Shown: positions 51,915 through 59,235 of the stretch, in pieces
Layout: each line of letters begins with the position of its first letter
Numbering within the stretch: position 1 is the stretch's first letter
Origin: a virus
IMG/VR virus record: IMGVR_UViG_3300027908_000025
DNA length: 64,000 bases
Strand: one strand, 5' to 3'
The notes under the pieces: generated by a model
Told to the model about the DNA's origin: nothing
The model's database searches: none
What the model saw: the letters and a program-made list of their open reading frames with translations, nothing else
Position numbers and translations under genes: made by a program

Positions 51915-52088
51915 TTACTTTACTTGACCGCTTTCCACGGCCTTGCGGAAGTGTGCGACAGCTCGCCTAAAAGCTTCGGCTTTACTGATATCTAGGGCAC
52001 CGGCAATTAGCTGGATGTCCGCAAGAAGTGAATCGTCCAAAGACAAATTGTACTTGGGCGTCTTGGTCGCAGTCTGTTCGTTGCTCAT
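51915..52088 (-). CDS. Ribbon-helix-helix (CopG-like) DNA-binding protein
   Basis: YNLSLDDSLLADI..IA....ISKAEAFRRAV; AAGGAG RBS; start MSNEQ. Confidence 0.8.
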   Translation of the reverse strand: MSNEQTATKTPKYNLSLDDSLLADIQLIAGALDISKAEAFRRAVAHFRKAVESGQVK

Positions 52089-52106
52089 TTGCCTTGTCTC
52101 CTTTTT

Positions 52107-52243
52107 ACGCACTGTGTAGGACACTCGCCTATAGGATCGCTGTCTCGCCGAGCGAAAGCCGGGTTGATTCGCATTCACCGGAAGGGGATACCATATACCC
52201 CTCGTGGGCCGGTGCCTTATGACGGGTGCCCTACACACTACGC
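52107..52243 (-). ncRNA. Candidate structured RNA or leader
   Basis: 12-bp closing stem 52113-52124/52226-52237 enclosing CACCGG/CCGGTG and GAGGGG/CCCCTT stems. Confidence 0.5.
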
Positions 52244-52311
52244 AAAAAGAGGGCCGTGGCTTTTCCTTTTTCTTGTCGAGAGCTTGTGCCTTGCTTCGAT
52301 CTAGTATAACA

Positions 52312-53124
52312 ATGGGCAGCACGAACCGCAAGGGGATAACGGCATATAAAGAGCTTGCCGAAAGGCTATGGGCGAAGGTGACGCGGGGTGGAGCCGATGA
52401 ATGCTGGCTTTGGTGTGGACGAGTAGAACACAACGGAGTTGGGGTGCTTACATCTTATCGCAATCACATAAGAGCACACAAAGCAGCGTATATGGTGACT
52501 AACAATACGGAAGTGCCAACGGGTAAGTATGTTATACAGACCTGCAACAATAGACTATGCTGTAATCCGTCCCACCTGATCTTATCTGATAAGAGAAGAC
52601 GAAACGGAGATAAAACAGAAGAAGATAGATTCTGGGGGAAGGTAAACAAAGATGGACCTATGCCTACTCCTGGCAAGTGTGATGGAAATTGTTGGGAGTG
52701 GCGGGCAAAAATCCTCCAAAGTACAGGATACGGTGAGTTTAGCGTTAGAAACGACGATGGTACTAACGGGTCAAAGTTAGCTCATCGAATGTCATATGAG
52801 CTTACCTTTGGCGAAATACCAGATGGTATGAATGTATGTCACGCGTGTGACAATAGAAAATGCCTCCGACCAGAGCACCTATTTGCCGGTACACAGAAAG
52901 AAAACGTGCAAGATGCTATCGCCAAAAATAGGTGGGCAAAAGAAAAGCCCAACCAAAAAGGTGAGAAGAGCCATAAAGCCAAACTAACCGAGGAGGAAGT
53001 TCTAGAGATAAGAAGACTGCATGCTACCGGCACAATGGGATATAGGAAGCTTTCCGCGAAGTTTGGAGTAAATACCGGCACAATACGAGCTATACTAATA
53101 AGACAGACGTGGAGACACATTTAG
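52312..53124 (+). CDS. Tandem HNH homing-endonuclease-like protein with C-terminal HTH
   Basis: Degenerate first module; intact second AHR.SY...CHACDNRKCLRPEHL..GT.KEN; KLTEEEV.EIR...FGV tail. Confidence 0.88.
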   Translation: MGSTNRKGITAYKELAERLWAKVTRGGADECWLWCGRVEHNGVGVLTSYRNHIRAHKAAYMVTNNTEVPTGKYVIQTCNNRLCCNPSHLILSDKRRRNGDKTEEDRFWGKVNKDGPMPTPGKCDGNCWEWRAKILQSTGYGEFSVRNDDGTNGSKLAHRMSYELTFGEIPDGMNVCHACDNRKCLRPEHLFAGTQKENVQDAIAKNRWAKEKPNQKGEKSHKAKLTEEEVLEIRRLHATGTMGYRKLSAKFGVNTGTIRAILIRQTWRHI

Positions 53125-57162: not shown

Positions 57163-57402
57163 TCATGGCAGCACCATAGCAGCGTATGCCCCAACCGCAT
57201 ACCCCAGCACAAACGCCGGAGCAATACGCCAGTTCTTGGTAGACTCTCCCACACCAATAATGATTGTGAGAGCTTGCAGGCCGGAGATTAATGCTGTATT
57301 GATTGCGGCACCGCTTGTAGCTTGATGTACCCAAACAACCGCCAGCGCTTCGTAGAGAGCGCCTGACACAAAGACGGAAATGAATCTGAGCGCGGTTTTC
57401 AT
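57163..57402 (-). CDS. Small 3-TM membrane protein
   Basis: Ends FVLGYAVGAYAAM; start codon lies in the last stem of the RNA array. Confidence 0.7.
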   Translation of the reverse strand: MKTALRFISVFVSGALYEALAVVWVHQATSGAAINTALISGLQALTIIIGVGESTKNWRIAPAFVLGYAVGAYAAMVLP

Positions 57403-58027
57403 ATGCTGTGAGGAGTCTCCCACCAGTGTTATCCTCGCAACTTATCGCCCTGGGCACTAATCGATATTGTTGCGCAGTTTTCCGGTGCGGAGACTCCTCA
57501 CAACACAAGAGCTTATATGCTTTGTACTGCACCCGCCCGAGTCCAGCGCAATACCAGTGGCGTCACATAGGCTTTTTCAGGGCCAGTACACGGGCATGGT
57601 ATATGTTGTTGGAGCTTAGACGAATGCAGTACAAAACATACTAGCTTATATGCTCTAAACTACATTCGCCCGTGGTACATCATTTATGCAGGGCGTCTCG
57701 CACGATCGAGGGCCCGATTGCTGCTTTTTGTCACACAGTACCGCATTACGCCTAAGCGTGTTGCAGATAGAGGAGACAATTGTCGCTGTACTTTAGACGA
57801 ATGCAGTTCAGAACACAAAAGCTTATACGCTCTATACTACGTTCGCCCGTAAGTTGGAGCCGAAGGAGGCGTTCGGAGAATCGGTTTGCGCGCCCGATTA
57901 CAATCAACTCCTATTTGGACATAACTTGGAGGGCAGCGGCAAAAAGCCGCTGGTAGTCTCGGTGTACGCCAAAAGTGCACACGTCAGGCTATTGACTCTT
58001 AGACGAACGTAGTACAGAACGCATAAG
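57398..58027 (-). ncRNA. Array of four abutting long-stem RNA domains
   Basis: 27-nt arm pairs 58001-58027/57822-57848, 57795-57821/57645-57671, 57618-57644/57512-57538; related stem 57483-57511/57398-57426; mismatches resolve as G-U only on the minus strand. Confidence 0.8.
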
Positions 58028-58123
58028 ATTGCTCGTTTAGTGTGAAGTGTCCTGGTTCCTCTATGCGTCCATTTTGGATGGGAGGATCCGACTCTTACTC
58101 TTTGGAGCTACCTTATGTGTTCC

Positions 58124-58240
58124 GATCAGAAGGCGATTGCCTTGACAGGTCGGGTGAGGTGGGTGGTCTCGGCGAGAGGTTCCGTCCAACCTTTTTAGGT
58201 ACCGACTTCTGATCGCAACACACAAGTTATTGTGTTGCGG
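58124..58240 (-). ncRNA. Upstream hairpins, probably part of the same long non-coding transcript
   Basis: GATCAGAAG/CTTCTGATC long stem 58124-58214; CGCAACACA/TGTGTTGCG hairpin ~58214-58239. Confidence 0.5.
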
Positions 58241-58350
58241 GACGATCATCATATCCTGCCGTAAAGGCATCTAGTTATCGTCTTGCTCCTCTAACATTGC
58301 AACGGCCCAGTGGCTCGTCAAGGGGTCATTGCTGGCACGAGGATGCTTCT

Positions 58351-58566
58351 TTACGGATTGCGCCAGTAGCGCTTGTCCTCTGACCGCTTCCAAACGAAAC
58401 CGCATCCATAGCACGTTCCTTTCTCAAAAGGCCTTGTGGATCCCCATTCCTGTCCATTGCATGTAGGACATCGAAATCGTTTCGCACGAAGAGGAGGTGC
58501 TTTCCATACCTTGTATAATAGGTAGGACACAATCGCAAATAGTGTTAGGCACCACATATACAGCAT
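58351..58566 (-). CDS. TM plus Zn-ribbon protein
   Basis: CPTC...CYGC. Confidence 0.55.
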   Translation of the reverse strand: MLYMWCLTLFAIVSYLLYKVWKAPPLRAKRFRCPTCNGQEWGSTRPFEKGTCYGCGFVWKRSEDKRYWRNP

Positions 58567-58956
58567 GATTACTTATCCAACCACCTTTCGGTCTTGAGAC
58601 AGAGCTGAGCACACATTGTCGCACCAATAGCACGAAAGAGCGCAGCTGCTCGGCGCATATCACTCTTCTTTGGATTGGGCGGAAGGAGGATGTTGTAGCA
58701 GAACCGGAGATTGCTCCGCACAACTTCTGGTTTCATTTCGGCTGTTGCCATCTTTTAGCTCACAATGCAATTGATTAGCAGACAAAGTAAGTACATCGCC
58801 AAGGCGAGTCCGCAAAAAAGAGACCATATCGTCAAAGCAGTTGGCTATGTTGGTAAAGAGGTTGTAATGTCCTACAAGGTTATAGCTACAACGATCCAAC
58901 ATAGAAGGCTGATAGCCCTTCGGCTGCACGTAGGCATTTGTCCTATAGACCATTAT

Positions 58957-59235
58957 TCACTTCCCACAGGTGTGTCGTAGCGCGCCAACTTCGCTGCAGC
59001 CAAGACAATCATCGCTGCTATCATATCCCATCTCGCACATAGCAAAGAGTCTGATAAACTCTCTGTCATTCTGCCAATCACAGGGCAGCGATAGTAACAT
59101 ATCTTTAGCTTCGATAAGCTTACCATCATCGATAAGGTTTGCTATTCGCCTTTCCGCCTCCAAGAAAGCATCGGGCTCAAAACGAATATAAAGCCTACCT
59201 CCAAAGATACGATACCATCGTTGCCAGAATTTCAT
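58957..59235 (-). CDS. Hypothetical protein
   Basis: TAATG overlap. Confidence 0.55.
   Translation of the reverse strand: MKFWQRWYRIFGGRLYIRFEPDAFLEAERRIANLIDDGKLIEAKDMLLSLPCDWQNDREFIRLFAMCEMGYDSSDDCLGCSEVGALRHTCGK

Follow-up and report, generated by a model that had tools for sequence, protein, structure and literature searches.

A gene-free stretch of about 830 bases in the genome of a large, uncultured phage from soil is predicted to give, from its minus strand, an RNA of five adjoining domains, each clamped by a helix of 22–27 bp. We are confident that these helices form a selected, strand-specific family of long-range pairings, and it is the helices, not the inserts enclosed by them, that carry the signal. 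The array is a real, novel and well-defined element that most plausibly acts as RNA, given its location on the coding strand and its overlap with start signals. The mechanism that we infer for it, RNase III-type processing combined with translation-gating stems, is the best reading of the predicted structures and is held at somewhat below an even chance. The window analysed here is a 64,000-nucleotide stretch of DNA from the IMG/VR virus record IMGVR_UViG_3300027908_000025, and its sequence is present on 134–167 kb contigs of other assemblies. Minus is the coding strand in this window: nearly all genes lie on it, most of them small and without a family match.

Architecture of the array and the solitary unit

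Following the minus strand from 5′ to 3′, the array begins with unit U0 (58109–58229), in which a 61-nt insert is closed by a 24-bp helix with 22 of 24 positions paired (5′ arm ~58226–58203, 3′ arm ~58135–58112; mean pair probability 0.91). Its stem base, CUUGUGUGUU/AACACAUAAG, matches that of the other units. An 81-nt spacer (58028–58108), which forms a rod-like hairpin of its own (z −3.08), separates U0 from U1 (57822–58027, 206 nt). The U1 arms, 58027–58001 and 57848–57822, are paired at 27 of 27 positions (22 Watson–Crick and five G-U pairs) around an insert of 152 nt. In U2 (57645–57821, 177 nt), arm 57821–57795 pairs with 57671–57645 at 26 of 27 positions (20 Watson–Crick, six G-U) and encloses 123 nt, and in U3 (57512–57644, 133 nt) arm 57644–57618 pairs with 57538–57512, again at 26 of 27 positions (20 Watson–Crick, six G-U), around 79 nt. 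The arms of U1, U2 and U3 were each recovered by arm pairing, in the minimum free energy (MFE) fold and in the ensemble. The last unit, U4 (57398–57511, 114 nt; z −8.8), is closed by a helix of ~22 bp (~57510–57489 with 57420–57399) that has only its base in common with U1–U3. There is no spacer between any of the units from U1 to U4. The arm coordinates and pair counts of U1–U3, the lengths of the four units (the fourth given as ~114 nt) and their direct abutment had been proposed in a sequence-only reading of this DNA, and all were reproduced when the minus-strand arms were paired.

Two units beyond those four, U0 and a solitary unit S, were found by an inverted-repeat search and by our own long-stem scan. 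S (52098–52252, minus strand) has a 27-bp helix with 25 of 27 positions paired (arms 52249–52223 and 52127–52101), a 95-nt insert and the stem base CUUUUUGCGU/GCGUAAAAAG. All six units share a stem base of 13 nt (5′ CUUNUGYGUU, 3′ ..AYAUAAG), with variants in S, which has the start and end just given, and in U4, which ends in ..AGCAUAUGA; similarity in the upper stem is limited to U1–U3. Since U0, U4 and S each stand without an abutting palindromic partner, they show independently that the unit of this family is 'arm-insert-arm' and not a 54-nt palindrome.

Independent gene callers leave a gap of 1.2–1.55 kb at this locus. Two small minus-strand ORFs upstream of the array (58351–58566 and 58660–58953) were accepted by some callers only, so the gene-free stretch may reach 1.55 kb; of the two, the ORF of 71 aa had no homologue among 5.8 billion proteins. 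No significant structure was found upstream of U0 in the region 58225–58960 (z −1.2). Another long-range stem occurs at 59084–59225 on the minus strand, with 22 of 24 pairs, a span of 142 nt and few registers. It sits inside a 92-aa ORF (58957–59235) predicted by two independent callers, is unrelated to the family in sequence and may be due to chance.

Strand-specific folding and compensated changes

The MFE fold of the region 57380–58060 on the minus strand consists of exactly four stem-closed domains in direct succession (−280.5 kcal/mol, z −16.1), whereas the plus strand of the same region gives a different and messier fold (−243.1 kcal/mol, z −5.0). Within the Boltzmann ensemble of 58240–57380, the cognate stems reach 0.89–0.97 in mean pair probability, while the hairpins within the palindromic repeats have a probability of ~0 and cost 43 kcal/mol when enforced. 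Pairing across the inserts instead of within the palindrome, the central proposal of the sequence-only reading, is thus what both the ensemble and the MFE structure favour. The arms also discriminate between partners: cognate arms reach −42.2, −35.0 and −36.1 kcal/mol, compared with −21.8 to −30.7 kcal/mol for every non-cognate combination and just −23.1 and −29.0 kcal/mol for hairpins of adjacent arms.

In the alignment of U1–U3, which are three paralogous units from one genome, 97.5% of cells pair and five pairs are altered on both sides. The covariation value was reached in four of 500 shuffles, and sliding the register lowers pairing to 32–52%. Substitutions in one arm had been said to be compensated in its partner; the double-sided changes and the advantage of cognate over all non-cognate pairs agree with this, and we regard the compensated changes in U1–U3 as suggestive, not conclusive. 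A further asymmetry concerns the non-Watson–Crick cells of the six helices, which on the minus strand comprise 24 G-U against two A-C, as anticipated by the claim that such positions are G-U on the minus strand and A-C on the plus strand. By our own count, the independent positions number ~16 G-U versus two A-C (binomial p ~7e-4), and transversion mismatches are almost absent from the six helices. The excess of G-U over A-C speaks for selection at the level of a single-stranded, minus-sense nucleic acid.

A scan of the whole window for long stems (24-nt arms with at least 22 pairs, G-U allowed, 30–320 nt apart) returned no cluster on the plus strand and six on the minus strand, five of them belonging to this family. 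At a looser threshold (20-nt arms, at least 19 pairs), which was also used for the shuffle control, there were two clusters on the plus and eight on the minus strand, compared with about one per strand in shuffled sequence. Multi-register, strand-specific stems of such quality were rare in ~860 kb of unrelated loci.

Variable inserts

The inserts show no similarity to one another, and their folding relative to dinucleotide shuffles is not significant (z −0.2, −1.5, −1.4, −0.1, −1.6 and +0.5). The sequence-only reading had described them as mutually unrelated and internally structured; the first part of this description stands and the second, with z-scores from +0.5 to −1.6, does not. The extreme z-score of the array is therefore due to the closing helices, and since the inserts neither resemble one another nor fold better than shuffles, it is the helices on which selection acts. 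Within the 64-kb window the inserts have antisense matches no longer than chance 12-mers, and comparison of the inserts with phage and plasmid collections gave no match. The possibility that the inserts encode small proteins was rejected, as they contain no credible start codon or Shine-Dalgarno sequence.

A 7-mer, SCGAGAC, occurs on the minus strand in four of the six inserts, namely those of U0 (58166–58172), U1 (57956–57962), U2 (57695–57701) and S (52142–52148). These inserts hold four of the ten minus-strand copies of the motif within 0.9% of the window length, and the palindrome CUCGSCGAGA has just two perfect copies in the window, one in U0 and one in S. The significance of the shared motif is borderline after multiple testing; the motif may correspond to a small hairpin or protein site.

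Genes overlapped by the units

Immediately after U3, the U4 helix runs into a gene for a 79-aa protein (57163–57402, minus strand), whose AUG (57402–57400) lies within the 3′ arm, in accordance with the earlier suggestion that the fourth unit has a related stem base and buries the downstream start codon. The protein has three hydrophobic segments and no Pfam or PHROG match, and it belongs to a family of small proteins with >100 clusters. Directly downstream of S is a gene for a 57-aa ribbon-helix-helix (RHH) protein of the CopG family (51915–52088, minus strand; PF01402, E 2e-5). At its end, the 3′ arm of S reads AAAAAG, which together with the following GAG overlaps an AAGGAG Shine-Dalgarno sequence located 12 nt before the RHH start. 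As for U0–U3, no gene follows them and no credible ORF lies inside them. The position of U4 and S on downstream start signals, together with a rod-like leader that buries the start codon of a homologous gene on another contig (L021, described below), shifts weight toward a role in cis.

On the other side of S, an HNH homing-endonuclease gene (52312–53124, plus strand) starts ~60 nt from the 5′ arm and is mentioned as context only; the window has two HNH/GIY-YIG homing-endonuclease genes on its plus strand. Between the HNH start and S (52253–52311, minus strand) we noticed TGTTATACT, which resembles an extended −10 promoter element and, judging by this likeness to the consensus, could provide the S-RHH transcript with its own start.

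Proposed RNase III-type processing and translation gating

According to the tentatively favoured reading, the array would be transcribed together with the surrounding minus-strand genes into an untranslated RNA, in which the flanks of each 60–150-nt insert would pair into perfect 22–27-bp helices, the selected and functional part of the element in contrast to the inserts. A host enzyme of the RNase III type would then cut these helices, and this cleavage would release stem-clamped ('paired-termini') RNAs and, in U4 and S, detach the 5′ arm from the AUG or the Shine-Dalgarno sequence that it covers. The unmasking would turn on synthesis of the 79-aa membrane protein and of the RHH protein, or set its timing. 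If the helices are such processing or gating sites, the phage would control the translation of small genes and the maturation of RNA by a reusable, duplicated RNA module.

Bacterial RNase III cleaves perfect helices of about two turns, matures 16S and 23S rRNA from flanking long-range stems, and processes T7 early mRNAs. The corresponding substrate feature is present in all six units, with 22–27 pairs and 0–2 mismatches. Since the abutting units have no single-stranded linker, only a double-strand-specific nuclease could separate them, and because the helices exceed two turns, the linkers have zero length and cuts in U4 and S would unmask starts, RNase III-type cleavage is the most economical proposal. 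We consider it a reasonable inference from 22–27-bp helices without linkers. RNase III-like palindromes dispersed over a phage genome have been documented (PMC11707656).

The rRNA stalks and the early R sites of T7 share with the array helices of about two turns inside a polycistronic transcript and separation that requires a double-strand-specific cut, and the stalks additionally share the long-range pairing of flanks around an enclosed RNA. In contrast to both, the segments enclosed in the array are short (60–150 nt) and lack both conservation and detectable structure, the stems are paralogous and follow each other with zero spacer, two units lie on start signals, and cleavage is putative. 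If processing and gating hold true, the array would represent a compact natural analogue of rRNA processing stalks and of engineered paired-termini RNAs. A second parallel is offered by leaders that sequester a start site until opened by processing, such as RNase III-activated phage mRNAs and the folded mRNAs of toxins such as hok. Similar to these, U4 and S place an AUG or a Shine-Dalgarno sequence in a long helix, and a small membrane protein is encoded downstream of U4. The array differs in that its helices are members of a repeated family, not specific to one gene, and in that processing is putative here.

Several features fit less well with RNase III-type processing. Ahead of a single small gene, four or five tandem sites seem redundant, the conserved 13-nt stem base suggests a sequence-specific partner that RNase III would not need, U0–U3 precede no gene, and homologues of the 79-aa gene are mostly without such a leader. 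Because plain processing by RNase III leaves the stem base and the redundancy of U0–U3 unexplained, a model with a dedicated partner stays alive; and as the cut inserts would keep their stem clamp, there is room for the idea that they act in trans.

Alternative explanations

The idea of trans-acting RNAs, which we consider unlikely, makes the insert the active part, as an antisense RNA, a guide or a protein decoy, and the 27-bp handle a device that stabilises it or loads it onto a protein. This would suit the variable and unrelated inserts between near-identical handles, the retention of the stem base in all six units, the occurrence of SCGAGAC in four of the six inserts, and the fact that the inserts are not locked in structure, as a base-pairing payload requires. 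It has an engineered precedent in antisense RNAs that carry a variable, largely single-stranded insert in an inverted-repeat dsRNA clamp; in that study, paired dsRNA termini made expressed antisense RNAs effective in E. coli (PMC1635301). Those RNAs are a synthetic design, whereas the phage units are natural and arrayed. Against a payload function, complementarity within the 64-kb window is limited to 12-mers, the inserts have no match in phage or plasmid collections, the neighbours scanned include no candidate partner protein, and U4 and S lie in cis on start signals. Extended to its full form, the proposal would define an undescribed class of phage RNA cassettes with a ~27-bp handle, a sequence-specific 13-bp base (CUUNUGYGUU...AYAUAAG) and interchangeable single-stranded payloads of 60–150 nt, whose linker-less array would, with a dedicated nuclease or binding protein, supply antisense or decoy RNAs during infection; we view this extended version as doubtful. 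Should the inserts be payloads, the array would be a new phage route to several regulatory or decoy RNAs from one transcript.

Rather less probable is the view that MITE, Correia or REPIN-like elements, or elements acting as single-stranded DNA, have piled up in an intergenic hotspot, with the RNA hairpins as a by-product that could still alter the expression of neighbouring genes. The arms resemble 27-bp terminal inverted repeats (22–27 bp), both clustered and solitary copies exist, every copy is intergenic, S lies 60 nt from a homing-endonuclease gene, and the leaders of homologous genes vary. Moreover, by our own reasoning, the sense strand is the lagging-strand template if replication and transcription are co-directional, so that an excess of G-T over A-C alone does not exclude single-stranded DNA. 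A parallel in its favour is found in the CREE/NEMIS elements of Neisseria, which, like the array units, are short, intergenic and bounded by inverted repeats. Their co-transcribed hairpins bind RNase III and are cleaved or protected by it, thereby affecting neighbouring genes, and the elements carry IHF and promoter motifs (PMC2649163). CREE copies have a conserved core and are dispersed genome-wide, whereas the interiors of the array are unrelated and the family comprises six copies in one phage with compensated arms. CREE also carry TA duplications; there is no target-site duplication flanking U0 or S.

The same contrast extends to MITEs in general, since the copies of one MITE have a common core, whereas the interiors here are non-homologous and of different lengths. 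The neighbours scanned include no transposase or RAYT, and the arms are absent, beyond chance matches, from IMG/VR, JGI metagenome contigs, GenBank phages and plasmids. The window has just six copies and the public collections scanned gave none, and compensated changes within units are unexpected for ends that bind a transposase. Four observations speak against a MITE- or Correia-like origin: interiors that have nothing in common, missing target duplications, an element that is rare, and compensated changes. The arms themselves may still have arisen by mobility or recombination.

We further considered a single large (~830 nt) multi-domain noncoding RNA, with five helices radiating from a linker-less junction and with the size and phage association of GOLLD and ROOL, and judge it improbable. 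The structured block is indeed continuous from 58229 to 57398, the linkers from U1 to U4 have zero length, and the independent gene callers leave 1.2–1.55 kb free. However, Rfam gave no match to GOLLD, ROOL or another family, the interiors show no significant folding, the stems represent recent paralogues and not distinct conserved domains, a solitary unit is located elsewhere, and no conservation was found in other genomes. DNA-level invertible segments in a shufflon-like array, with repeats kept alike by recombination, would account for inverted repeats that bound short segments and for the concerted evolution of both arms of a unit, but are very improbable, as no recombinase was found nearby, the strong G-U/A-C asymmetry and an almost complete lack of transversion mismatches would not be expected for duplex DNA sites, and contigs of the source runs show no alternative orientation, although minor forms may be hidden in them. 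Whether the helices or the inserts prove to be the working part, the array is an unusually clean, strand-specific structured element outside all RNA families searched.

Identities considered and rejected

The sequence-only reading had listed a 6S-like RNA among its candidate roles. This proposal failed: RF00013 gave no match, not even at E<=10, and the predicted interiors, being multibranched or loose, do not form a rod with a central bubble. CRISPR and TIGR arrays were rejected because the 54-nt junction repeats are palindromic, the apparent 'spacers' are uneven (79, 123 and 152 nt) and no cas or tas gene was found among the neighbours scanned, and a retron because no reverse transcriptase was detected among the ORFs scanned near the array and across a sample of the window. 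In retron msr-msd RNAs, a conserved branching G in an AGC context comes after the a1/a2 closing stem; the array units do have a closing stem, and their 5′ arms are followed by AAGAGU, AAAGUA and AAGCUC, with the AGC context in U3 only. The core motifs of integron attC sites (RYYYAAC...GTTRRRY) are absent or reversed, the co-varying arms span the insert and no integrase was seen.

The PeSL elements of T4-type phages, which combine a sigma-70 promoter with a local terminator hairpin and flank ORFans, are similar to the array units as repeated intergenic stem-loop elements flanking variable cassettes in a plastic early region of a large phage (PMC2839356). In the array, by contrast, pairing extends across each cassette, and no ORF lies inside. 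An identity with PeSL was rejected since the minus strand of 57398–58229 contains no promoter-like site, no insert has an ORF and local hairpins have a probability of ~0.

Searches for relatives

No named RNA family had been recognised in the array from the sequence, and searches with Rfam 15 bear this out. At gathering thresholds over the whole window no family matched the array and only distant tRNAs were reported, and at E<=10 over 57300–58400 the only hit was mir-1228 (plus strand, E 9.4), a match by chance. Covariance models for GOLLD, ROOL, Y RNA/YrlA, tRNA-like RNAs and ribozymes likewise gave no match to the array. A tRNA-like cluster lies at 2276–2704 (minus strand), where Rfam calls four tRNAs and ARAGORN labels two of them 'tRNA-???' with a 2-nt anticodon (tc).

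When the region was compared by BLASTN with GenBank phages and with PLSDB plasmids, no match emerged. Exact arm and junction patterns returned lone chance matches without a partner arm from IMG/VR and JGI metagenome contigs, and by these patterns the array is a singleton in both collections. The contigs of the DNA runs that are the probable source, which are not independent of the window, have the identical sequence with no variants and no alternative orientation; contigs can mask minor orientation forms. A search for RNA runs found none. Among the array neighbours and the sample of window ORFs scanned, no reverse transcriptase, cas, Tas-like, recombinase or RNase III gene was found, in keeping with the earlier statement that no cas, RT or Tas-like gene is adjacent. 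No relatives were found for the neighbour proteins of 71, 132, 166, 287 and 360 aa, and scans of genome contigs for the phage host gave no match.

Homologues of the 79-aa protein were examined at five loci (L020, L021, L077, L091 and P0005), of which only L021 has a long leader. Since the other four have leaders that are short, unstructured or overlapping, the leader is not a conserved feature of the membrane-protein gene. The homologue in L021, a 1.1-kb soil contig, is 63% identical and is preceded by an unrelated, rod-like leader of 102 nt (334–435, plus strand; z −3.3), whose 3′ arm holds the GUG start.

The 197-aa neighbour protein has relatives in two high-GC phages, with one domain in common. 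The whole records of these two phages contain no array and one isolated long-stem domain. In G001, a 136-kb IMG/VR soil phage with one protein domain in common with the window, a helix of ~27 bp that includes G-U pairs closes a 138-nt intergenic domain (L084:9366–9503, plus strand; z −5). Flanked by two plus-strand genes and placed directly before a Shine-Dalgarno sequence and ATG, this domain has no sequence similarity to the units of the window. Long start-proximal clamps thus recur in soil phages, as non-homologous and sporadic elements. For other large phages, abutting long-range stems confined to the coding strand provide a search image.

In the high-GC relatives L020 and L077, a GC-rich imperfect palindrome similar to GCCGCGCCACTGCGCGC flanks the homologous membrane-protein gene on both sides (L020:105–125 and 388–408; L077:2960–2978 and 3241–3260). 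It may be a promoter, operator or terminator motif of these phages.
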